Source: a bacterium
GTDB taxonomy: Bacteria > UBA8248 > JACPRG01 > G963555815
Assembly: GCA_965261595.1 (NCBI GenBank)
Contig: CBDHDG010000006.1
Coordinates: forward strand, 928,001-992,000
Length of the DNA stretch: 64,000 bases
Direction of reading: 5' to 3'
Both the position numbers and the translations under genes were made by a program. The notes under the pieces were generated by a model that had not been told where the DNA came from, made no database searches, and was given only the letters and a program-made list of their open reading frames with translations. Positions within the stretch are counted from its first letter, which is position 1. Each line of letters opens with the position of its first letter. Below are positions 42,624 through 53,821 of this stretch, piece after piece.

Positions 42624-44024
42624 CTACGGCAGGTCGTTCTTGCTGATCAAAAAATCCCGGACGAGATTGCTCTCTGTCTTGGGAAGTGGAACGGACGATC
42701 CGTTGAGCTCGACGACGGTGCTGGTGGCGTTCCCTATCGTCAGAACAAACGTCTTGTTCCCGCTCCAGCGCCGGCTCTCCCCTTCCAGCAGGAAGATCTC
42801 ATCCCGCTGATTTCCGTCCACAATCACGCGCAGCCAGGTGTCCCCCTTGGCCGTGATGTTCAGAACCAGAGGCGACTGCCAGGAGGATGGGGCGGTTTTT
42901 TTCTTGAGGGTGACTTTCACCTCGGCGTTGTCCACAACCTTTTCGGTTACGGCCTCGCCCGCCGAGGCCGCTCGCGCGTCCGGAGGGGGCGGGGAACCGG
43001 ACTTCGGGATCGTCTCCGCCACCGCGGGCGTCGGCCGGCTGTCCCCCTCGGCCGCGGAGGAAGACGGAAGGATCCCGTTCTTCTTCTCGGCCTGGACTTC
43101 GGGGGTCTTCGGGTTCCGGTCCGCTTTTGGCTTGTTGACCTTCACGGCGGTTTTGGCTTCGGAGACCTTCGGAATTCGGTCCGTCTTCGGCCGGTTGATC
43201 TTCGCGGCGGCTCTGGCTTCGGAGGCCTTCGGCCCGGCCGGGTTCACCACCTTCGGAGCGGCCGGACGGCGCGCCTTTCGGGGGACGGCGCCCACGGCCT
43301 TCTCCGCCGGGGGCTTTTCCCCCTGATCCGGCCCGAGCTTCCACCCTTCGACGTAGAAATAATATCCCACGCCCAGCACCAGAAGGAAGAACGCCGCGGC
43401 GGGGATCCGTGTGCGCAAAGCACGCCGGGACTCCGTGAGCCGGGCGCTCCATTCCGGGAAGATAAAATCGGCCTCTTCCTCAGCTTGCTGGGCGGGGGGA
43501 TGGAACCGGGAGAGAAGGTCATCCGCACTGAGACCGATTTCCGCCGCCAGTATTTTCAGGAACCCCCGGACGATGGGCGTATGCGGGACGTCTTCATATC
43601 GGTCCTCTTCGAGCGCCGATATGATCCGCCCTTTGATCTTGGTGGTGGAAGCCAACTGATCGATGGTGATTCCCGCCGCTTCCCGATGTCGCCGCAGGTA
43701 TTCGCCCAGCGGTTCAGGGGCGGGTGAATCGGCTTCCTCCGTGGAGGGGGGGAGGGGGACATCCTCATCCGGCGCTTTTTCCGTCTGTGAATCCGGGAAA
43801 GACGCGTCCCCCACCGGAGTGAACAGCTCTCCGGGAAACTCATCGTCCAACTTCCCCGAATCCTCATCGGAGACTTCAAGACCCGTCAAACCAGGCTGAA
43901 TCCTATCCGAATAAGCCCCGCTCGAAACATCGGCCGAGGTCTCCCGCGGGGTCTCTTCCGGCGATTGGCCGTTCTGAGCGCCCGTGTCGGATTGAGAATT
44001 CAGATGCTCATCCATGTCACTCAT
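42624..44024 (-). CDS. rodZ: RodZ-like protein (HTH, TM helix, DUF4115 domain)
   Basis: LGEYLRRHRE...TKIK..ALEE HTH, TM helix, C-terminal TWLRVIVDG...IGNA..LNG. Confidence 0.8.
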   Translation of the reverse strand: MSDMDEHLNSQSDTGAQNGQSPEETPRETSADVSSGAYSDRIQPGLTGLEVSDEDSGKLDDEFPGELFTPVGDASFPDSQTEKAPDEDVPLPPSTEEADSPAPEPLGEYLRRHREAAGITIDQLASTTKIKGRIISALEEDRYEDVPHTPIVRGFLKILAAEIGLSADDLLSRFHPPAQQAEEEADFIFPEWSARLTESRRALRTRIPAAAFFLLVLGVGYYFYVEGWKLGPDQGEKPPAEKAVGAVPRKARRPAAPKVVNPAGPKASEARAAAKINRPKTDRIPKVSEAKTAVKVNKPKADRNPKTPEVQAEKKNGILPSSSAAEGDSRPTPAVAETIPKSGSPPPPDARAASAGEAVTEKVVDNAEVKVTLKKKTAPSSWQSPLVLNITAKGDTWLRVIVDGNQRDEIFLLEGESRRWSGNKTFVLTIGNATSTVVELNGSSVPLPKTESNLVRDFLISKNDLP

Positions 44025-44273
44025 CCATCCACCTTCCCATTCGCCCGAAAGGAGACTGGCCCCCCCTACGGGCAAGCAGATCCCCTGATAAGTCGCGCCA
44101 CCCTTTTCTACAACGAAAAATGTACTACACTTGCAAAAGGAATGTCCAATAAACTAATCACTTAACTCTATATGACGCCTCCGGCCCCACACTTCAATCC
44201 TTCCGGAAAATTCAACGTAATTTTTACATATTGAATATTCGGGACCGTGAATGGCGGACCATCTAAAATTCCA

Positions 44274-44305
44274 TTGACTCCGTACCCGACTCCGGGGATT
44301 ATCTT
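44274..44305 (+). promoter_or_regulatory. MerR-type promoter/operator with a long spacer
   Basis: TTGACT (44274-44279), 20-nt spacer CCGTACCCGACTCCGGGGAT with imperfect dyad CCGTAC..CTCCGG, TATCTT (44300-44305); begins like the Tn501/Tn21 PmerT TTGACTCCGTAC. Confidence 0.82.
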
Positions 44306-44366
44306 GACGATCAGCCTTTGACCACGCCGATCGGCGACACGCCTTCTCCCCTAGGAGCTGAGGATA

Positions 44367-44612
44367 ATGGAACAGAAAGAGGTTACCCTATACACATCGA
44401 GCTTGTGAGCGTCTTGCAGAGGCGTGAAAGAGTTTCTTTCACATCACAGCATTCCCTACCAGGAGCACTTGATCGACCAAGACCAGGAAGCGATGAACAC
44501 CTTGGTTGAGAAAACCGGACGCAAAGCCACTCCCGTGCTTCTCATTGGCGAGGAAACCGTGGTGGGCTTTGACCGTCGAAAAATCTCGGACCTTTTGGAG
44601 ATTGGTCGATGA
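44367..44612 (+). CDS. Glutaredoxin/NrdH-like selenoprotein (U-A-S-C; Sec at TGA 44406-44408)
   Basis: GAGG RBS then ATG; MEQKEVTLYTSSL-U-ASC-RGVKEFL...KTGRKATPVLLIGEETVVGFD; SECIS-like hairpin at 44424-44442. Confidence 0.85.
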
Positions 44613-44968
44613 ACGCTTCAGAGCGAAGGCTCCGCTGCCCTGGCTGCGAAATGGACATTCCAGTCCCGTGGGACGCCAAGAACGGCGACGTTACTGAGTG
44701 TGAGAACTGCGCGGGTGTTCTGTTTCGCCTCTCCGAACAGGACGGCGGGGACATCCTGCGGCTCGTGCTGCTTGTCTCGTGTCCTTTCTGCGAGGAGACA
44801 ATCCCGGTGGACGATAACACGCCCGAGGGGACCGTCATTCGTCACGGGGGGGCGGAATTTTCGCTGACGAAGGAGTTCGGCGCTTTCTCGCTGGAGCTCG
44901 CCGGCGGCCAAAGACCCGGCCTGGTTCCGGCAGCGGACGCGGACAAAGCGCGAGGGACGGCAGGTTGA
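44609..44968 (+). CDS. Tandem zinc-ribbon protein (LysW-like fold)
   Basis: CPGC...CENC then CPFC...; ATGA overlap with the glutaredoxin gene. Confidence 0.65.
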   Translation: MNASERRLRCPGCEMDIPVPWDAKNGDVTECENCAGVLFRLSEQDGGDILRLVLLVSCPFCEETIPVDDNTPEGTVIRHGGAEFSLTKEFGAFSLELAGGQRPGLVPAADADKARGTAG

Positions 44969-45267
44969 AGCCGCAAAGATCAATCACGGGAAAAATCATG
45001 CTGGGCGCGGCCTTCTTTCTGTGCCCCTGCCACCTGCCCATCTACCTGGCCCTGTTGGGCGGAACGGCCGCGGGCGCGCTGCTCTCCGAGAACGCGTACA
45101 CCGCCGGGGCCGTCCTGGCCCTCGCGTTCCTCGCGGCGCTCGTTCTGGGGTTGCGCATGCCGGGGAAGAACATTTCCAAGGCCGGGGCCGCCTCGGAGCG
45201 GGACCCATCCGATACCGGAGGGCAACCTCTCCGGCACGGTCGAATCCGGCGGGCGCCCCTTGGATGA
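44965..45267 (+). CDS. merE: MerE-like mercury transporter
   Basis: CPCHLPI...GGTAAGALLSE signature. Confidence 0.82.
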   Translation: MKPQRSITGKIMLGAAFFLCPCHLPIYLALLGGTAAGALLSENAYTAGAVLALAFLAALVLGLRMPGKNISKAGAASERDPSDTGGQPLRHGRIRRAPLG

Positions 45268-45279
45268 GGGAGAATCGCG

Positions 45280-45618
45280 TTGCGCTTGAAAGAGGTATTT
45301 CCCGGAGCGGCCGGCGTCCTGACTTCCTTGGGGGCCTCCATCTGCTGCCTCCTCCCGCTCGCGGTGATTTACCTGGGACTCGGAACGGGATCCTTCATGG
45401 CAACGACCATGAAGTACCGCCCCATCGTATTTCCATTGGGGGTGATCGGCCTCGGCGCCGGTTACTTCCTTTACTTCCGGGAGCGAAAACGCTGTCGACG
45501 CGTGGCGTGCAGAATGGCGGGCTCCAAAATCAACCTGGCCTTGCTGGCGGCGGCGACGATCATCATGGCGGGTGTCGTGTGGGCCGATTTCTTCTCGGGC
45601 GTCCTGGCCATGATGTGA
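45280..45618 (+). CDS. merT: MerT-like mercuric transporter
   Basis: ASICCLLPL in TM1, YRP, cytoplasmic C....C pair, three TM helices. Confidence 0.85.
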   Translation: MRLKEVFPGAAGVLTSLGASICCLLPLAVIYLGLGTGSFMATTMKYRPIVFPLGVIGLGAGYFLYFRERKRCRRVACRMAGSKINLALLAAATIIMAGVVWADFFSGVLAMM

Positions 45619-45635
45619 CGCAAAAGGGGGAAGCG

Positions 45636-45968
45636 ATGTCAGGCGTGCATCGTCCGTGGAATGGGTTGAAATGTGTGGTTCTGGCGGCCGTCTTCGCCAT
45701 GGCGCTCGGCGGGTGCGAAGGAGACCCGGTTCCATCGGCCGAAGCCGGGGAGCGGGTGACTCTGAGGGTTTCGGGGATGACGTGAGGCGCCTGAGCGGTC
45801 ACCGCGAAACCAGCCTTGGAAAGGCTGGATGGAGTGAGAAAAGCCCGGGTGAGCCTCTCGAAGGGAGAGGCGTACGTCACGTATGACCCAAGCCGGGTCA
45901 CGGTGGCGCAGATGATTGCGGCCATCAACCGCCTGGGGTTCAAAGGCGGCATGAAAGAAGGATCGTAG
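45636..45968 (+). CDS. merP: MerP-like periplasmic HMA protein with two putative selenocysteines (GMT-U-G-A-U)
   Basis: Lipoprotein-like leader ending LGGC; VTLRVSGMT-TGA(45783)-GGC-GCC-TGA(45792)-AVTAKPALERLDGVRKARVSLSKGEAYVTYDPSRVTVAQMIAAINRLGF; hairpin at 45810-45828. Confidence 0.85.
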
Positions 45969-46073
45969 GCGGGCCTCGATGGGTCCGCGGAGAGGATTTC
46001 CGCTGATCGGATACGGCCGATGGTCCGGGTGGTCTCCTTCGGCCGGGATACGTTGAGTGGGGGCATGGACAAT

Positions 46074-46301
46074 ATGGAAGATAGAAAGCTGCTTCGCACG
46101 GGAGGCGCGGGGACGGTTGTTGCCGCGATTTGCTGTTTCACGCCGGCCCTCGTCCTGCTGTTCGGGGTGATGGGTCTATCGGCCTGGGTCGGTTGGCTGG
46201 ATTACGTCCTTTGGCCCGCGCTTGTGATATTTGCCGGAATGACGGTCTATGCCCTTATCCGGCTGAGGAAGAAACCATCCGTCCACCGCAAAGGGACCTG
46301 A
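46074..46301 (+). CDS. merF: MerF-like mercury transporter
   Basis: KLLRTG..GTVVAAICCFTP.LV.L...GLSA..GWLDYVL.PAL signature. Confidence 0.9.
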   Translation: MEDRKLLRTGGAGTVVAAICCFTPALVLLFGVMGLSAWVGWLDYVLWPALVIFAGMTVYALIRLRKKPSVHRKGT

Positions 46302-46802
46302 TTCAAAGAAAGGCCGAATAATGAGGTTTTGGTCTTTTCTTCTTTCCATCAAGACACATCTCCCTTCGCCAAGACCAAAACTTTCCTCGCGAGCCGATCA
46401 AACCAATAGTTGAGGGGTCCAAGATGGCTGAGTCCTTGCGTTCCAAAGAGGGTTCCTTGACATTGATTGCCTTGATCGCGGGAGGGGTCTTGCCACTCCT
46501 GATCGTTTTTGGCTCCGCCCGTCTACTGCCCATGCCGACCCTTTTCTGGGCTGTCGGCGTCCCGGCGGAAATCGTTCTTTTTGGGGTTCTGCTCTACGCT
46601 CGTTCGGCCGGACCGGAGCGCTTGTATCGGAGGCTTTGGGTGGGGTGATCGGCGGCGTATTGCTCACCTTGTCATTGGATGCCGTCCGAACCGCAGGGGT
46701 CAACATCGGTTACCTTCCGGATTCCGTGTCGATGTTCGGGCGCTTGGAGTTGACCCGGTTTGGTGGACACCTGATGATTTGGGGGTAAAGGAGGTGTTCA
46801 CG

Positions 46803-47117
46803 ATGCCACAGACTCACCCACGCTATCCAATGGAGTTCCGCTGCCAGATGGTAGAGTTGGTCCGGGCGGGACGCACGCCCGAGGCGCTGGCGCACGAGTT
46901 CGAGCCCTCGGCGCAGACGATCCGCACCTGGGCCCATCAAGCCGACGTTGACGAGGGGCGTCGCAAAGACGGGCTCACGAGCGATGAGCGGGAGGAGTTG
47001 CGCCGACTTCGCCGCGAGAACCGACAGCTCCGCCAGGAGCGGGAGATCTTAGCAAAAGCCGCGGCCTGGTTTGCTCGGGAGACCGATTCGATCCCGTCCG
47101 GATCTACGGGTTCGTGA
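46803..47117 (+). CDS. IS3 transposase OrfA
   Basis: HTH followed by ELRRLRRENRQLRQEREILAKAAAWF. Confidence 0.9.
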   Translation: MPQTHPRYPMEFRCQMVELVRAGRTPEALAHEFEPSAQTIRTWAHQADVDEGRRKDGLTSDEREELRRLRRENRQLRQEREILAKAAAWFARETDSIPSGSTGS

Positions 47118-47965
47118 GGGCGAACCAGGCCATGTATCGGACCGCCACCATGTGCCGGGTGCTGGGCGTCTCCTCCAGCGGCTACTACGCGTGGCGCAGG
47201 CGCGCGCCGTGTGCCCGCTCGTGTGCCGATCGGGCGCTCACCAAACGCATTCAGGCGATCCACGAGCGTTCTCGGGGGACTTACGGCGTGCCGCGCGTCC
47301 ATGCCGAGTTGGAGGCTGAGGGAGTGCGTGTGGGCCGCAAGCGCGTCGCCAGGCTGATGCGTGGGGCGGGACTTGCGGGCGTCAGTCGGCGCAAGGGAGC
47401 GCGCACGACGCAGCGCCGGCAGGAGGCGCGGCCGGCCCCTGATCTGGTGGACCGCAACTTCACGGCCGAGGCCCCCGACCGGCTGTGGGTGGCCGACATC
47501 ACCTACGTTCCGACATGGGCGGGGTTTTTGTATCTGGCCGTGGCGCTCGATGCGTTCAGCCGGCGCATCGTGGGGTGGTCGATGGCCACACACCTGCGGG
47601 CCGAGTTGGTGCTCGACGCGCTCGACATGGCGCTGTACAAGCGCCGTCCCCGGGCCGTCATCCACCACTCCGACCAGGGCAGCACGCAGTACACCTCGGT
47701 CGCCTTTGGGCAGCGCTGCCGGCAGGCGGGCGTGCGTCCCTCCATGGGTTCGGTCGGGGACTGCTACGACAACGCGCTGTGTGAGAGCTTTTTCGCCACG
47801 CTGGAGTGCGAGCTCCTCGCTCGCCACAGTTTCCGCACCCGGGCCGAGGCGCGCATGGAGGTGTTCGGGTTCATCGAGGGCTTCTACAACCCGCATCGTC
47901 GGCACTCCTCCATCGACAACCTGTCACCCGTTAACTACGAAAGGAGACAACAACGCACACCCTGA
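47114..47965 (+). CDS. IS3 transposase OrfB (DDE)
   Basis: WVADITY, HHSDQGS and DNALCESFF motifs. Confidence 0.93.
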   Translation: MRANQAMYRTATMCRVLGVSSSGYYAWRRRAPCARSCADRALTKRIQAIHERSRGTYGVPRVHAELEAEGVRVGRKRVARLMRGAGLAGVSRRKGARTTQRRQEARPAPDLVDRNFTAEAPDRLWVADITYVPTWAGFLYLAVALDAFSRRIVGWSMATHLRAELVLDALDMALYKRRPRAVIHHSDQGSTQYTSVAFGQRCRQAGVRPSMGSVGDCYDNALCESFFATLECELLARHSFRTRAEARMEVFGFIEGFYNPHRRHSSIDNLSPVNYERRQQRTP

Positions 47966-48289
47966 AAACCCAAGTGCTTAACTCTCCACGAAACCGGGGT
48001 AAGTCCATTGCGTTTGGAGTGGTCTATTCAATCCTTTTTGGAAAGACCCGATGGTGGGGCGCCGTGCTTTATAGCGTCTTCTTTGTAGAGCTTGGCATGA
48101 TGACCCTTCCACCGATGGCGAAAATGATGGGACCTTTCGGCGTCAACAAGTTCGGCACAATTTGGAACGGGATGTTCATAACCACATTGCTCGCTCACGC
48201 CGCGATGGGGGTTGTGCTCGGTGTTGTGATTCAGAAGTGGGGAAAGCACCCCGGTTTGTTTTTCTCAAGTAGAAGCATAGGCGCGTAGT

Positions 48290-48538
48290 GTGGTGCTATC
48301 GGAACTTCATATCGAGGGCATGACGTGACCCAAGTGCGTCAAACGGGTCCGTGAGTCCCTGAAAAAATCCCCGGGAGTTCAGGACGTCCAAGTTTCTTTG
48401 GAGACGGGACGGGCCGTTATTTGGATGAAAAAAGGAAGCCTACCCACAGAGGACCTCCTCGAACAGGTGGTGGAAGCGGCCAAAGGCGCCTTCCATTCCT
48501 ACGTCGCCCGCTGGGTTAAACCCCCCTCTTCGAATTAA
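48290..48538 (+). CDS. Stand-alone HMA (CopZ/NmerA-like) selenoprotein (GMT-U-P-K-C; TGA 48326-48328)
   Basis: Absent from the ORF track; MVLSELHIEGMT-U-PKC-VKRVRESLKKSPGVQDVQVSLETGRAVI...; SECIS hairpin weak. Confidence 0.8.
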
Positions 48539-48687
48539 GCCGCATCCGCTGATTCGGAGAGTCATCAGCACCAAATCCCGAACCCTTTTCGGACTCCACG
48601 CAGATGAGACAATCAGAGAGACCCCGGCTGTCATCCAATGCTCCTCGAAGCCGATCTGGATTTTGAGGGAAGCGTTTGGAGAGCGAC

Positions 48688-50044
48688 ATGGCTTTAAAGT
48701 CATACGACCTCATCGTCATCGGAACGGGGTCTGCGGCCTCTGCGGCAGCATCCGAATGCCGCACCGCCGGGTGGACCGTGGCGGTTATCGATTCCCGTCC
48801 TTACGGGGGGACATGCGCCCTGCGCGGCTGCGACCCCAAGAAGGTGCTCGTCGCCGCGGCCGAGGCCCTCCACTGGGGGCATCGCTTGAGGGGCCGCGGG
48901 GTTCGTCCCGGCGATGCGCGGATCGACTGGCCCGAGTTGATGGACTTCAAGCGCACGTTCACCGAATCCGTGGCGCAGAGCCACGAGCGGTGGTTCGCCG
49001 AAGTCGGGATCGACGGATACCACGGGCGGGCGAAGTTTATCGGCCCCGTCTCTGTTCAAGTCGGCGGCGACGATCTGGAGGCCAAACACGTCTTCATCGC
49101 CTCCGGCGCCATGCCGGCCAGGCTCGGGATCCCGGGAGAAGGGCATCTGATCGCGAGCGAAGACTTCCTTGAGCTGGACGAGCTGCCGGAGCGTATCGTT
49201 TTCGTGGGGGGCGGCTACATCTCCATGGAGTTCGCGACCGTTTCCGTCTGCGCCGGAGCTGAGGTCACCGTCCTTCACCGGGGTCCGCGACTCCTGCGTG
49301 GATTCGATCCCGGCTCGGCGGACTTGGTCGCGGAGGCGGCTCGCGGGAGCGGCATCGACCTGAAGTTGGAGACTCGGGTCGAAAGCATAACAAAGACTGC
49401 CGGCGGCTTTGTCGTTGAGGCATCCTCACCCGCGGGATCGCAAACGGTTGAAGCCGACTTGGTGGTGCACGGCGCCGGTCGGGTGGCTGAGATTGAGGAT
49501 CTCGACCTGGGAGCGGCCGGCGTGGAGCGGGGGAAGCGGGGAGTATTGGTGAACGAGTATCTGCAAAGCACCTCGAATCCGGCGGTCTATGCAGCGGGAG
49601 ACGCGGCGCGAAACGGAAGGACAGCCTCTCACGCCCGTGGCAGGGGTCGAAGGAGGGGTTGTGGCAGCAAATCTATTAAATGGGAACAAAGTTAAGCCTG
49701 ATTACACCGGAACGGCAACAGTGGCATTCACATTGCCGCCGATTGCCGCGGTGGGACTGAGAGAAGATGAAGCCAGGAAGAAGGGGCTCAAGTTTCAGGT
49801 GAATTTCCAGGACACGTCTGGATGGTATTCGACACGGCGCATGGGCGAGAAATACTCGGCATCCAAGGTGTTGGTCGAGGAAGACACGGGGCGGCTGCTC
49901 GGTGCGCACCTCCTCGGGCCGTCTGCGGATGAGCTGATCAACCTCTTTGCGCTTGCCATCCGCCACGGTCTCACCGCCGAGGGTCTAAAGGAGGTGATCT
50001 TCGCGTATCCGACGCACGCGTCTGACGTGGGTTATATGGTCTGA
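48688..50044 (+). CDS. Pyridine nucleotide-disulfide oxidoreductase, glutathione-reductase-like (frameshift at ~49608)
   Basis: GTGSAA, GGTCALRGCDPKK, GGGYI and YAAGD motifs, then LTPVA...YPTHASD in the 49589 frame; lacks the NmerA domain and the C-terminal Cys-Cys of MerA. Confidence 0.85.
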
Positions 50045-50100
50045 AGAGCACGCCCTTTGTCCAATTTCGTGATGAGAAAGGGTCATTTGGGAGATGTCAA

Positions 50101-50717
50101 ATGGAAACCTCAAAATTGCCTCAGCTCAGAGAGCATTTCAATCAGGCATGCGATTCCGTGAGGGTTCTTACAATCCTCTCTCCTACCTAACCCGTATGTC
50201 ACTACGGGCATGGAGTTGTCCGGAAGCTCTTCGAGGAGATTGACGCGAATGCGCTCAAGGGTTTTTCAATATGGCTTCCCATCATGGACGGGGACAACGC
50301 CGATGCCGCGAGGGCCGAATCAGAGAATTTCCCGGATGAACGGGTAGAGCACAGTTGGGATTCCGAAGGACAATTTGGCCGGCTCTTTGCGAAGTTTCTC
50401 AATTTGAAAGGTGTCGCGTGGGATGTTCACTTGCTCTACGCGCCGGGTGTCACCTGGGGTGTGGATGAGCCGCCCAAACCTGCATTCTGGATGCACCAAC
50501 TTCCTCCAGTAACGGGAGCCGATGGGAAACTTCTTTGAACCCAGGTAGATTTTCACACGAGCTGATGAATCTCCTTGGAAGAGAGGATCCGCATATGGCT
50601 TGGGATATGGCCTTTATGTTGCACGTTGGCGGTATTGGCGGGGTCATGAGGGAGAGGGCTCAGTCTTCACTGGAAGAGGTCCTCAAGGCCGTCGATCCTA
50701 CGAAGGAAGGACCGTGA
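50101..50717 (+). CDS. Thioredoxin-fold protein with TAA at the first position of an SPT-x-PV-C motif (plus a frameshift at ~50536)
   Basis: METSKLPQLREHFNQACDSVRVLTILSPT-TAA(50188)-PVCHYG...IWLPIM.GD...WD...AWDVHLLYAPG..W...FWMHQL in a single frame; hairpin at 50205-50222. Confidence 0.65.
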
Positions 50718-50721
50718 ATCG

Positions 50722-51150
50722 ATGAAGAATTGCCCGGAGGTTCCTATGGAATCCTTGACGATCGAAAAGGTCGCCCGCGGGGCGGGTGTGAACGTCGAGA
50801 CGGTTCGCTACTACGAGCGCAGGGGGCTGATCGAGCGGCCAACCAGCCGGCGGGGGGCTTACCGGGTCTATCCGTCCGAGACCGTCGGCCGCATCCTGAG
50901 CATCAAGCGCGCCCAGCGGCTCGGGTTCTCCCTGGATGAGATCAAAGAGCTGTTGGCCATGCGATCGGACGCCCGGGCCCGGTGCGGCGACGTGCGCGTC
51001 CAGGCCGAGCGGAAGATGGCCGAGATTGAGGAGAAGATCAAGGCCCTGCGGGCCGTGAAGAAATCGCTCGGCAAGCTCGCCGACGCCTGCCGGAGGGAGC
51101 TGCCTGTGACGGAGTGCCCGATTCTGAAAAACCTGAGCGGGGTTTCCTGA
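50722..51150 (+). CDS. merR: Hg(II)-responsive MerR-type regulator
   Basis: VNVETVRYYERRGL HTH; three Cys (ARCGD, DAC...ECPI) spaced like MerR C82/C117/C126. Confidence 0.88.
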   Translation: MKNCPEVPMESLTIEKVARGAGVNVETVRYYERRGLIERPTSRRGAYRVYPSETVGRILSIKRAQRLGFSLDEIKELLAMRSDARARCGDVRVQAERKMAEIEEKIKALRAVKKSLGKLADACRRELPVTECPILKNLSGVS

Positions 51151-51237: not shown

Positions 51238-51456
51238 TCAGGATTCTTCACCTTTGGGCAGGAACTGAATCGTCAGAATTTCTCTGTCTTGGCCCGAAAA
51301 TGGGCCGTATCTGTCCACGTAGGGCCTGAGGGGGAAAAAGATGGATTTCCGGCCTTCACATCGGGGTTTCGAGTCGGCAGAATGACCATCCCGGCACGGG
51401 ATCACCTTGATATGGGCCACGAGGGTCCTGATCCAGCGATTTGCCTGTGCCTTCAT
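51238..51456 (-). CDS. Small hypothetical protein (72 aa) downstream of the riboswitch
   Basis: AAAGGAGG RBS; MKAQANRWIRTLVAHIKVIPC... Confidence 0.55.
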   Translation of the reverse strand: MKAQANRWIRTLVAHIKVIPCRDGHSADSKPRCEGRKSIFFPLRPYVDRYGPFSGQDREILTIQFLPKGEES

Positions 51457-51514
51457 TGGGTCCTTCCTCCTTTGCACTCCGGTGGTCGGAGAGGAAGTCC
51501 GCCCCTCTCCTCAT

Positions 51515-51610
51515 TCTTCGGCGGGCCGGCTGTCTGGGGGGGAGATGATTTCAGACCCAGACCCGTGCCTTTGCGTCCCGGCCTCTCGACCGGTTTGCCC
51601 TTATCGAAAC
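51515..51610 (-). ncRNA. Cyclic di-GMP-I (GEMM) riboswitch
   Basis: Minus strand TTCGATAAGGGCAAACCGGTCGAGAGGCCGGGACGCAAAGGCACGGGTCTGG...CCAGACAGCCGGCCCGCCGAA matches the GEMM pattern GGCAAACC-GNRA-GGGACGCAAAG...GCCGAA. Confidence 0.85.
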
Positions 51611-51781: not shown

Positions 51782-53821
51782 TCAACGCTTCCGCGAACCT
51801 TCGCCGAACAGCCGGCCGGCGGCCTCGGCCAGGCCTTCCACCTCGTCCACGACGGGCCAGGGAGGGAGCCCTTCCAGGAAAATCCGGCCGTAGGGCCGCG
51901 TGTGAAGCCTGGAGTCCAGGACGGCGAGGAGGCCCCGATCCTCCCGGCTTCGAATCAGACGCCCCAGCCCCTGTTTCAAGGCGAGAACGGCCCGGGGAAC
52001 CTGGTAGGTCAGGAAGGCGTTCTCCCCCTCGGCGCCGATAGCCTCAGAGCGGGCCTCGACCAGCGGGTCCCCCGGACTGGGGAAGGGGAGTTTATCGATA
52101 ATGACGCAGCTCAGGGCGTCCCCTTGAACGTCCACGCCCTGCCAGAAGCTGGCCGTCGCGAAGAGGACCGAGGTCCGATCCCGCCGGAACTCGTCCAGAA
52201 GACGGGCCCGGGGGGCCTCGCCCTGGATCAGCACCCGGTGCGGAATCCGGTCCTTCAGCCGCCCGTGAACCGTTCTTAAATTCCGGTAGCTGGTGAAGAG
52301 CACGAAGGCCCGGCCCTCGCAAATCTCCAGGAGCAATTCGATGTGGGGGCAGATGGCGTCGATCCATTCCCGGGTGTTGGGCCGGGCGGAAATCCGGGGA
52401 ACAAACAGGGCCGCCTGGCGTGCGTGATCGAAGGGGGAAGGCAGGAGAATCTCGCCCGCTCCGTCCAGCCCGAGACGCTCCCGGATGAAGCGAAACGAGT
52501 CCCCGGAGCTCAGGGTGGCCGAGGTCAGGACCACCCCCTGTACGCGCTCGAACAACTCCTCCCGCAACACCCCGCTCACGTCGATGGGCGACGCCGTCAC
52601 GGCCACGCCCCGCCCCCGGGTCTGAACCCAGGAGATGTACGCGCTGTCTTCCATCCTGAGGATGAATTCGATCTCGCCCGCGATCTCCTGGGCGCGCCGG
52701 GAGACGGTCTTCAGGCCCTCGCTCCGGGCGCTGTCCGCCGCGCGCGCGAGCGCTTTCAGTCCGGCCGTCAAAGCGTTCGCGGCCTCCGACAGGACCCGCG
52801 TCACATCCTCCGGGCGGAGACGGCGGCGCTCGCCGGAATCCTCCCGGGGCCGCTTTTCTTCCGTGCTCCCCTTCCTTCCGCCGGGACGGTCTTTTCCGGC
52901 CTCCCGAAAGAGCGGCCCCGTCCCCGGCAGGGCGGAGAAAAACGCGTCGGAGGATTTCGCCACCCCGGCCAGGGTGTTCGTGATGTCGTCTTCCCCTTTC
53001 CCGGTCGCCGCCCGCAGGGTGTCGCGCGCGAGGTCTTCGATGCGGCCCCGGCTGACGGTGGTCCCGAAGTAGTCCGTGGCGACGTCCTCCAGGCTGTGCG
53101 CCTCGTCGAAAATGACGGCGGCGTAAGTGGGCAGAATGCCGCCCGAAAATCCGTCGCCGCCGTGCAGCCGGAGGTTGAGGTCCGAGAAGAACAGGTGGTG
53201 GTTAACGACGACCACGTCCGAGGCGGCCGCCCGTTGCCGGGCCCGCTGGATGAACGGCTCCCCGAACTCGGCGCAAAAGCCCGGATTGCACGCCTCGGCG
53301 GAGCAGCAGAGGTCCCGCCAGACGGTGTAGTCCTCGGGCACGCCCTCCGCTTCCGCGATGTCCCCGGTCGCCGTCTTCCCGGCCCAGTCCCGGACCTTGT
53401 CAAAAAGCGCGGCATCCTCGCGGGAGCGGAGCGCCGGCTCCTCGAGGAATTCCCGGTAGCGCCGGGGACAGAGGTAGTTGTGCCGTCCCTTGAGGACGCA
53501 GACCCGGAAGGTGTGGCCGAGGGCCTTCTCGAGTATTCGGAGGTCTTTGTGAAGGATCTGGTCCTGAAGGTTTCGGGTCCCGGTGGAGATGACAACGCGG
53601 CGGCCCAACAGGACGGCGGGTCCGAGATAGGCCAGCGTCTTGCCCGTTCCGGTCCCTGCTTCGACCAGGAGCTTTCCGCCGTCTTGAAGGACGTCGGCCA
53701 CCGCCGCGGCCATTTCGACCTGGGAGGGGCGGTGCTCGTACTCCGGCAGGGACTTGGCGAGGCGGCCCCCGGGTCCGAACAGCTCTTCGGCCAGGCGCTC
53801 GCCGTGTGTGGGTTCAGTCAT
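51782..53821 (-). CDS. DinG/YoaA-family ATP-dependent DNA helicase
   Basis: EAGTGTGKTLAY, KGRHNYLC, VNHHL, DEAH, TSATL and QGLGRLIR motifs. Confidence 0.93.
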   Translation of the reverse strand: MTEPTHGERLAEELFGPGGRLAKSLPEYEHRPSQVEMAAAVADVLQDGGKLLVEAGTGTGKTLAYLGPAVLLGRRVVISTGTRNLQDQILHKDLRILEKALGHTFRVCVLKGRHNYLCPRRYREFLEEPALRSREDAALFDKVRDWAGKTATGDIAEAEGVPEDYTVWRDLCCSAEACNPGFCAEFGEPFIQRARQRAAASDVVVVNHHLFFSDLNLRLHGGDGFSGGILPTYAAVIFDEAHSLEDVATDYFGTTVSRGRIEDLARDTLRAATGKGEDDITNTLAGVAKSSDAFFSALPGTGPLFREAGKDRPGGRKGSTEEKRPREDSGERRRLRPEDVTRVLSEAANALTAGLKALARAADSARSEGLKTVSRRAQEIAGEIEFILRMEDSAYISWVQTRGRGVAVTASPIDVSGVLREELFERVQGVVLTSATLSSGDSFRFIRERLGLDGAGEILLPSPFDHARQAALFVPRISARPNTREWIDAICPHIELLLEICEGRAFVLFTSYRNLRTVHGRLKDRIPHRVLIQGEAPRARLLDEFRRDRTSVLFATASFWQGVDVQGDALSCVIIDKLPFPSPGDPLVEARSEAIGAEGENAFLTYQVPRAVLALKQGLGRLIRSREDRGLLAVLDSRLHTRPYGRIFLEGLPPWPVVDEVEGLAEAAGRLFGEGSRKR

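Follow-up and report, generated by a model that had tools for sequence, protein, structure and literature searches.

Whether a bacterial mercury operon can be built on selenocysteine (Sec) in place of cysteine is the question raised by a gene cluster in a 64-kb stretch of bacterial DNA (contig CBDHDG010000006.1, positions 928,001–992,000; hereafter the window, within which all coordinates below are given). The mercury-selenium link in toxicology reflects the very tight Hg-Se bond, and the textbook bacterial mercury system uses Cys pairs only. The cluster is located at 44274–51150 on the plus strand. Gene families were assigned with Pfam and NCBIfam profiles on the open reading frames (ORFs) of the window, which gave a single tight plus-strand series in the order grx, Zn-ribbon, merE-like, merT-like, merP-like, merF, two small membrane genes, HMA, flavin reductase, thioredoxin (Trx)-fold gene and merR. 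The ORF map and both profile collections agree with the co-oriented, mer-type cluster ending in MerR that a first-pass annotation of this DNA had described. It is likely that the cluster is a mer-type mercury operon with Sec ligands in the MerP-like lipoprotein (UxxU), the HMA protein (UxxC) and the glutaredoxin (Grx; UxxC), with an ancestral fourth Sec in the Trx-fold protein, and that its distal half has decayed. It was probably acquired horizontally as a chromosomal mercury detoxification operon.

In-frame stop codons and SECIS-like hairpins

The genes with in-frame stop codons are as follows.

44367–44612 (+): grx, glutaredoxin-like gene of the YruB/NrdH type; PF00462, 48.1 bits; TIGR02196, 73.6 bits, cut-off of 88.55 unreached
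45636–45968 (+): MerP-like HMA protein with a signal peptide and an LGGC lipobox-like site; NF041115, 98.1 bits (cut-off 95)
48290–48538 (+): cytoplasmic HMA protein, CopZ/NmerA-like; PF00403, 50.2 bits; NF047957, 59 bits, under the cut-off of 85
50101–50717 (+): Trx-fold gene of an unnamed family with the motif SPT-[C/stop]-xx-C; in-frame TAA and a 1-nt deletion at ~50534–50537

TGA is present in grx at 44406–44408 within SSL-U-AS-C (U, putative Sec), in the column where Grx 7C10 has the leading Cys of its CPHC motif. The MerP-like gene contains two TGAs, at 45783–45785 and 45792–45794 (GMT-U-GA-U), which align with the GMTCxxC motif of MerP 1AFI and of ATP7B domains, and the HMA gene contains one at 48326–48328 (GMT-U-PK-C), which also aligns with GMTCxxC, the NmerA structure 2KT2 being matched with an E value of 6e-7. 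In the Trx-like gene the stop is a TAA (50188–50190). Alignment to solved or database homologues placed all five stops on Cys columns of CxxC motifs, and the reading frames remain open past every one of them. The first-pass annotation had reported these placements and the continuing frames, and the columns were confirmed in the HMA, Grx and Trx-like alignments.

TGA serves as the ordinary stop codon in most cluster genes and in 19 of the 33 Pfam-supported genes outside the cluster, where it is the commonest stop, indicating that the organism does not generally read TGA as sense. Hence, a window-wide reassignment of TGA was rejected. The four TGAs in grx, the MerP-like gene and the HMA gene are best read, from the sequence evidence available, as Sec codons. 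The same proposal in the first-pass annotation is upheld by the Cys columns, by the hairpins found in two of the genes and by the match of the MerP-like protein to NF041115, a 'metal-binding (seleno)protein' model (UxxU_metal_bind). A database fragment (P0134) was found to be 98% identical to the N-terminus of the MerP-like protein and to terminate at GMT, just before the first TGA. It carries one substitution and therefore comes from another genome. It also bears out the expectation that gene callers would fragment the locus. In the search of representative proteins with the MerP-like query, which was dominated by multi-HMA proteins, this fragment was the sole informative match.

Two hairpins resembling the Sec insertion sequence (SECIS) were identified downstream of these TGAs.

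44424–44442 (+): SECIS-like hairpin in grx, 15 nt past the UGA; stem of 8 bp without mismatch, GUU in the loop
45810–45828 (+): SECIS-like hairpin in the MerP-like gene, 15 nt past the second UGA and 24 nt past the first; stem of 8 bp without mismatch, GGA in the loop

Both have an identical 15-nt spacing between UGA and stem and a 3-nt loop with a leading G. On the two strands of the window, a perfect hairpin of at least 8 bp was located 8–24 nt downstream of 13 of the 1789 TGA trinucleotides, and three of these 13 are the cluster sites. A G within the first two loop positions was present in 8 of the 13 hairpins, and the other ten sites are without CxxC context. When compared with shuffled sequences, the 68-nt region of the MerP-like gene gave a z score of -2.24 (5/200 shuffles as good). 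In the HMA gene, an interrupted stem of 4–5 bp starting ~15–16 nt past the UGA could be seen by eye. Searches of the cluster against Rfam gave no match at the gathering threshold and, at E values up to 10, only Guanidine-I and DicF at chance level.

Several observations weigh against the Sec reading of the cluster. The hairpin criteria were fixed only after the hairpins had been seen. Folding of the grx region was matched by 30 of 200 shuffles (z = -1.16), that of the HMA region gave z = -0.93, and the HMA gene is without a convincing SECIS, stems of at least 6 bp being absent at the expected place. The single hairpin of the MerP-like gene would need to serve two UGAs located 9 nt apart, an arrangement that the E. 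coli SECIS spacing rules would not predict. No homologues of the HMA protein were retrieved in the search, and selA, selB, selD and tRNA-Sec were not found within the 64-kb window, in which no tRNA genes of any kind were found. Near-length homologues of the MerP-like protein carried Cys and not Sec in all 24 of the 24 retrieved, and NF041115 was the best NCBIfam model for 25 of 26 rows of MerP-like homologues too. The first-pass annotation had proposed that homologues be examined for Cys or TGA at these columns; the outcome was divided, the 24 Cys-containing proteins standing on one side and the P0134 fragment, which ends at the first TGA position, on the other.

The absence of Sec machinery from the window and the Cys residues of the MerP-like homologues, together with the lesions that the cluster demonstrably gathers (described below), are what could be expected if the TGAs were plain nonsense mutations in a dead relic that never used Sec. 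Such an explanation is nevertheless very improbable. The TGAs are found at two-residue ligand positions in 4/4 cases and nowhere else in these genes. Conversion of TGC or TGT to TGA requires one change, but chance hits on both Cys of one CxxC and on the first Cys of two others are very unlikely. Moreover, the hairpins occur at the same spacing, the curated description of NF041115 is that of a family of UxxU (seleno)proteins, and the protein from the second genome stops at the same position. The Sec reading of the four TGAs is thus retained.

Nothing close was found in plasmid sequences. Blastn with 44274–46790 gave only a 113-nt match in merF, and tblastn with the MerP-like protein gave ordinary MerP/HMA proteins only, all below 60% identity (4336 records; 29.5–45.3% among the 25 listed). 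The Cys-type relatives of the MerP-like protein (P0174–P0195) mostly show the lipobox-like site followed directly by a second C-D-L-C motif (...ICDLC...), whereas the window protein reads LGGC-EGD and is without the second pair. An alternative GTG start of the MerP-like gene at 45615 overlaps the stop of the merT-like gene.

The short reductase and the assignment to mercury

The assignment of the cluster to mercury depends on the following features.

48688–50044 (+): short MerA-type flavin reductase (pyridine-nucleotide disulfide reductase) of the GbsMerA family; one extra base at ~49607–49610
50722–51150 (+): merR, with the Hg-ligand cysteines C88, C123 and C132; TIGR02051, 128.8 bits
44274–44305 (+): Pmer-like promoter/operator; TTGACT, 19-bp spacer with a partial dyad (CCGTAC..CTCCGG), TTATCT
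46020–46301 (+): MerF transporter with a CC pair; PF11431, 71.4 bits; NF033565, 93.4 bits (cut-off 50, equivalog)
44965–45267 (+): MerE-like membrane protein; CPC motif; PF05052, 35.1 bits (cut-off 22.8)
45280–45618 (+): MerT-like membrane protein; CC pair in helix 1; PF02411, 23.5 bits, under the cut-off of 32.9

The reductase gene is disrupted by a +1 frameshift after the codons for ...AAGDAA, frame 1 extending to 49608 and the protein resuming at 49610 in the next frame. The two pieces correspond to residues 1–307 (80% identity) and 308–451 (78%) of an intact orthologue with no residue lost; this 80%-identical orthologue is encoded on a 2-kb contig of a metagenome-assembled genome (MAG; locus L001). 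The closest PDB entry is 8K40/8K41 (GbsMerA), with an E value of 6.9e-130 for the L001 orthologue as against 2e-67 for the next entry, a classical MerA, and the C-terminal piece of the window reductase itself matched 8K40 with an E value of 2.1e-35. The motifs CALRGCD (CxxxxC followed by Asp) and YPTHAS (Tyr...Ser) of the reductase align with 8K40. According to its description, GbsMerA from Gelidibacter salicanalis reduces Hg(II), protects E. coli and is inactive as the Y437F variant; NmerA and the C-terminal Cys pair are both absent from it, Tyr437 and Ser442 replace His and Glu, and Asp47 is placed right after CxxxxC (PMC10587081). In the window reductase the FAD fold comes first and the last residues, ...YPTHASDVGYMV, include no Cys, so that the protein has no fused NmerA and no C-terminal CC pair. 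The canonical MerA model TIGR02053 / NF010311 was not reached, the two pieces scoring 197.3 and 90.2 bits against a cut-off of 454.45.

Judged by its sequence, the cluster encodes a MerA of the short GbsMerA type, for which Hg(II) reductase activity, reported for GbsMerA itself, would be predicted by likeness. The statement in the first-pass annotation that a canonical MerA is absent is therefore literally true, as TIGR02053 was not reached and both NmerA and the CC pair are missing; yet a short MerA, nearest to 8K40, is present. The pathway of mercury capture or sequestration that had been deduced from the absence of MerA is not supported, since the reductase is the nearest relative of GbsMerA and retains its named residues. 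The separate Sec-HMA protein would be the obvious candidate for supplying the missing Hg-delivery function, as its gene is positioned ~150 nt upstream of the reductase and the protein matches NmerA profile models in addition to 2KT2.

A scan of genome contigs with the reductase revealed three related loci (L001–L003), none of which has the same neighborhood, and this is a further point on the unfavorable side. At L001, no HMA-like reading was found in the 232 nt upstream of the reductase. The gene following the L001 reductase, in place of the Trx-like gene, is a Cys-rich ORF (1678–2025, +) with several CxxC motifs and a metal-binding look. The loci in two further MAGs, one archaeal and one from the Krumholzibacteriia (L002, 5312–6658, and L003, 9857–11377), code for members of the short-MerA family with the C-terminus ...[FY]PT..S....V, and mer neighbors are absent from both; the short reductase family is thus not confined to mercury operons.

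The regulator gave its best match to the mercury MerR model TIGR02051, yet below the cut-off of 150.85 (CueR model, 102.8 bits). In alignment with MerR 5CRL and 4UA1, its residues C88, C123 and C132 fall on the three cysteines of those proteins. The site at 44274 reads TTGACTCCGTAC...TTATCT. Ungapped comparison of 44274–44305 with the promoter upstream of merT on a plasmid of P. aeruginosa (L004) showed 23/32 matches, the next best site on either strand of the window having 19; the agreement extends to the -35 box, to the left half of the operator and to the spacing of 19 bp. The mer-type promoter placed ahead of the cluster in the first-pass annotation is accordingly the single best-matching site of the whole window. 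The dyad is degenerate on its right side (4/7 pairs), and a consensus promoter scan also gave TTGACT-17-GATTAT at this site. It is likely, as far as these alignments indicate, that MerR controls the Pmer-like promoter. The spacer also contains a direct repeat, two copies of GACTCCG 12 nt apart (44276–44294), where canonical operators carry the dyad. A 14-nt inverted repeat (44202–44244; 86% complementary, 15 nt between the arms) located ~30 nt before the -35 box in the intergenic region between the divergent rodZ and grx could be the site of another regulator.

It is quite unlikely that the cluster serves another soft metal (Cu, Ag, Au or Cd) or selenium/thiol redox stress, with the reductase acting on a disulfide, selenide or another metal. 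For such a role speak the HMA proteins, which score on CopZ models as high as on MerP models or above them, the activity of GbsMerA on Ag and Mn reported in the available part of its description (PMC10587081) and the occurrence of the reductase family without mer neighbors in L002 and L003. The profile scores point the same way: MerR is below its cut-off, the MerE-like protein scored 41.7 bits with NCBIfam NF010310 (cut-off 80), and the MerT-like protein gave, besides its sub-cut-off Pfam score, only weak matches to the NCBIfam MerT/MerTP models, all of which add to the points against a mercury operon. However, MerF exceeds an equivalog cut-off and MerE its Pfam cut-off, the best model for the regulator is the mercury MerR, its three Hg cysteines all have counterparts in 5CRL and 4UA1, whereas CueR is without the first of them, and the promoter matches the plasmid Pmer. 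Mercury hence remains the preferred substrate.

Probable decay of the distal half

An insertion sequence (IS) element interrupts the second of the small membrane genes.

46636–46750 (+): DUF6789-like membrane gene, 5' part; no family match alone
46751–48001 (+): IS3-family element of 1251 bp; HTH_Tnp_1, HTH_21 and rve domains, imperfect terminal inverted repeats
48002–48288 (+): DUF6789-like membrane gene, 3' part; weak PF20587 match of 17.5–18.4 bits (cut-off 27.1) over profile positions 69–140 of 144

The element contains orfA (46803–47117; HTH_Tnp_1) and, in the -1 frame, orfB (47114–47965; HTH_21 and rve). A target duplication, AGT, was read from the sequence at 46748–50 and 48002–04, and removal of 1254 nt (IS plus target duplication) brings the two halves of the DUF6789-like gene into one frame. 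Alternative boundaries of 46763–48007 with a TTG duplication were weaker on alignment of the ends, and an 11-nt direct repeat flanking the IS (D12) was taken as chance since its copies lie in different frames.

Two lesions are present in the Trx-like gene, which gave no match in Pfam or NCBIfam and 22 matches in a collection of 5.8 billion proteins. The TAA lies in the context SPT-stop-PV-C. The full-length homologues (n = 12; 39–70% identity to the window protein) all have SPTCxxC, with Cys at the TAA column in 12/12, whereas the closest homologues (n = 10; 65–90% identity) are all N-truncated predictions starting past that column; two truncated homologues begin one residue ahead of the second Cys. 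Such a distribution would be expected of a sub-clade with an in-frame stop at the first Cys, most simply a TGA for Sec. TAA is not readable as Sec by any known machinery, and this codon, listed with the four TGAs in the first-pass annotation, is not a Sec codon. The TAA is probably a nonsense lesion of a former TGA Sec codon; this origin is favored because TGA to TAA is one transition, whereas TGY to TAA requires two changes. The second lesion is a -1 frameshift: the homologues read ...GADGKLLLNPGRFSHELMNLLG..., and the window loses one base in or next to the T run, the C-terminal 60 residues being encoded by the ORF at 50535–50717. The AlphaFold model of one homologue (P0004; pLDDT 84.8, pTM 0.82) predicted a Trx-like fold. 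A Foldseek search of the PDB with this model gave weak matches (E 5e-4 and weaker, TM 0.4–0.69) to thiol:disulfide oxidoreductases of the DsbE, ResA, TlpA and DipZ type. The Atlas neighbors of the Trx-like protein are unnamed clusters of 159–192 aa, mostly acidobacterial.

All four lesions, namely, the IS, the +1 shift in the reductase, the TAA and the -1 shift in the Trx-like gene, are located at or after the IS in the distal 4.4 kb. The sequence is best read as an operon copy in decay, in which merR and the proximal genes, from grx to merF, appear functional still. The simplest history would be a working Sec-rich mer operon, an IS insertion with polar effect and subsequent neutral decay of the distal genes. 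The break by the IS had been recorded in the first-pass annotation, where the cluster was otherwise treated as intact; in that part it needs correction, as two frameshifts and the TAA are also present. Neither of the frameshifts nor the 74-aa membrane ORF described below had been recorded there.

The frameshifts may be assembly errors, a point that counts against decay. Carried further, the operon could be intact and active, with both frameshifts and possibly the TAA (in place of TGA) being assembly or sequencing errors and the IS alone being real. The -1 shift lies within a short T run, the close relatives of the Trx-like protein and the L001 reductase read through the frameshift points uninterrupted, and all the proximal genes and merR are intact. 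However, the +1 shift is outside any homopolymer, three independent point lesions in addition to the IS are found in the distal 4.4 kb, and inspection of the 33 Pfam-matched ORFs outside the cluster revealed no domain split over two ORFs (a crude script scan was non-discriminating). An intact operon is therefore considered unlikely and decay of the distal half is preferred.

Proposed working, related systems and setting

We infer the order of Hg(II) transfer and the roles of the Grx, Trx-like and Zn-ribbon proteins and the membrane ORFs from the gene content. MerR would sense Hg(II) and open the Pmer-like promoter. Hg(II) would be captured outside the inner membrane by the MerP-like protein and passed inward by the MerT-like, MerE-like and MerF proteins, all three of which contain Cys pairs. 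The Sec-HMA protein would receive the ion, replacing the missing NmerA domain and perhaps also the missing C-terminal Cys pair, and would hand it to the short GbsMerA-type reductase for conversion to Hg(0). Sec-Grx and the Trx-like protein may keep the selenol and thiol sites reduced or remove Hg from them.

For intact relatives of the operon, a more far-reaching proposal is put forward tentatively, as a possibility. A selenolate relay, running from a UxxU lipoprotein in the periplasm to a UxxC HMA chaperone in the cytoplasm and serviced by Sec-Grx and the new Sec/Cys Trx-fold family, may feed a short MerA. The free Sec-HMA protein would replace NmerA and the Cys pair, Sec would speed Hg ligand exchange, and selenium supply would set the Hg resistance of these possibly acidobacterial bacteria of soil or sediment.

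The cluster resembles the classical Tn501/Tn21-type mer operon in its MerR with three Hg cysteines, its Pmer-like 19-bp spacer and its set of MerP-like, MerT-like, MerF and MerE-like proteins. In contrast to the classical order merR-merT-merP-(merC/F/E)-merA, merR is placed last and is co-oriented, not divergent; in addition, MerA is short, four ligand cysteines are encoded as TGA, and there are additional genes for Grx and for Zn-ribbon, Trx-like and membrane proteins. With the GbsMerA operon (ArsR - MerT/P - GbsMerA) it shares the reductase family with Tyr...Ser for His...Glu. It differs from that operon, as presented in the accessible sections of PMC10587081, in having MerR and not ArsR, separate genes for MerP and the transporters, a Sec-HMA gene upstream, selenoproteins and a frameshifted reductase.

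Single Sec proteins of this kind have been listed before, and no novelty can be claimed for them individually. A 2026 review lists the UxxU metal-binding family with two Sec and, beside it, Sec-Grx (UxxC), a cation ATPase with UxxC and a putative protein of mercuric transport; a 2022 review includes a 'putative mercuric reductase, UxxU', and among the selenoproteins tabulated in the GOS survey is 'Mercuric transport protein MerP'. The NF041115 UxxU family is thus on record already, as are MerP, MerT and HMA-ATPase proteins with Sec. The MerP-like protein belongs with NF041115 by score and by its UxxU motif; the survey reports of that family, in their available portions, concern single genes, whereas here an operon is found.

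The SAO system of Clostridioides difficile and other anaerobes is likewise a multi-selenoprotein operon with Sec at presumed heavy-metal ligands and a Trx-like UxxC protein (bioRxiv 10.1101/2022.07.06.499078). According to that report it differs in its unrelated families (MerB-like lyase, ABC transporter); a MerA-type reductase, MerR, MerF and MerP are all absent, and the role proposed for it there is in metabolism and not in resistance. A functional link between Grx and a MerA-like Hg reductase has a precedent in Synechocystis, where glutaredoxin 1 controls such an enzyme (Marteyn 2013, cited in PMC8261052); that system, as cited there, differs in lineage and has neither an operon nor Sec. 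Single Sec proteins, the short MerA type and a multi-selenoprotein heavy-metal operon are each known already. Full-text searches of the literature did not reveal a MerR-linked mer operon in which a short MerA and the Trx-fold family are combined with Sec-Grx, Sec-HMA and a UxxU MerP, although survey supplements may list such loci. With that reservation as to supplementary tables, the outcome agrees with the view in the first-pass annotation that no operon of this architecture is known to have been described.

If the Sec reading is true, the family would offer a genetic test of Sec as a metal ligand, in terms of affinity versus exchange rate, a test of substrate delivery to a short MerA without the usual Hg-handling appendages and a test of whether selenium availability limits environmental microbial Hg(II) reduction. 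Owing to fragmentation by gene callers, surveys of mer genes would undercount such operons. As the window copy is damaged, its value is that of a pointer to the family and not of an experimental system.

Two further genes complete the cluster.

44609–44968 (+): Cys-rich LysW-like Zn-ribbon protein; PF21344, 32.3 bits; NF041070, 47.8 bits, under the cut-off of 75
46424–46648 (+): 74-aa membrane ORF with no family match; its stop overlaps the next start (GTGA)

The cluster is flanked by rodZ (42624–44075, minus) on one side and a DinG-type helicase gene (51782–53821, minus) on the other, and no integrase was seen near it between these two genes. Its G+C content per kb (0.55–0.65 for 44001–51000) is lower than that of the flanking housekeeping genes (0.62–0.68), which agrees with acquisition by transfer and hints at an old horizontal event. 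On the opposite strand just 3' of merR, a c-di-GMP-I-GGC riboswitch aptamer was detected at 51516–51608 (-), scoring 70 bits (gathering score 59). The sole ORF after it codes for 79 aa (51238–51477, minus) and is convergent with merR, and no obvious regulated gene was seen. Within the cluster the genes are closely packed. Starts and stops overlap at 44609 (ATGA; the Zn-ribbon start with the grx stop), at 44965 (TTGA) and at 45615 and 46645 (both GTGA), and small gaps of 1 nt (48288/48290) and 4 nt (50717/50722) separate genes in the distal part.

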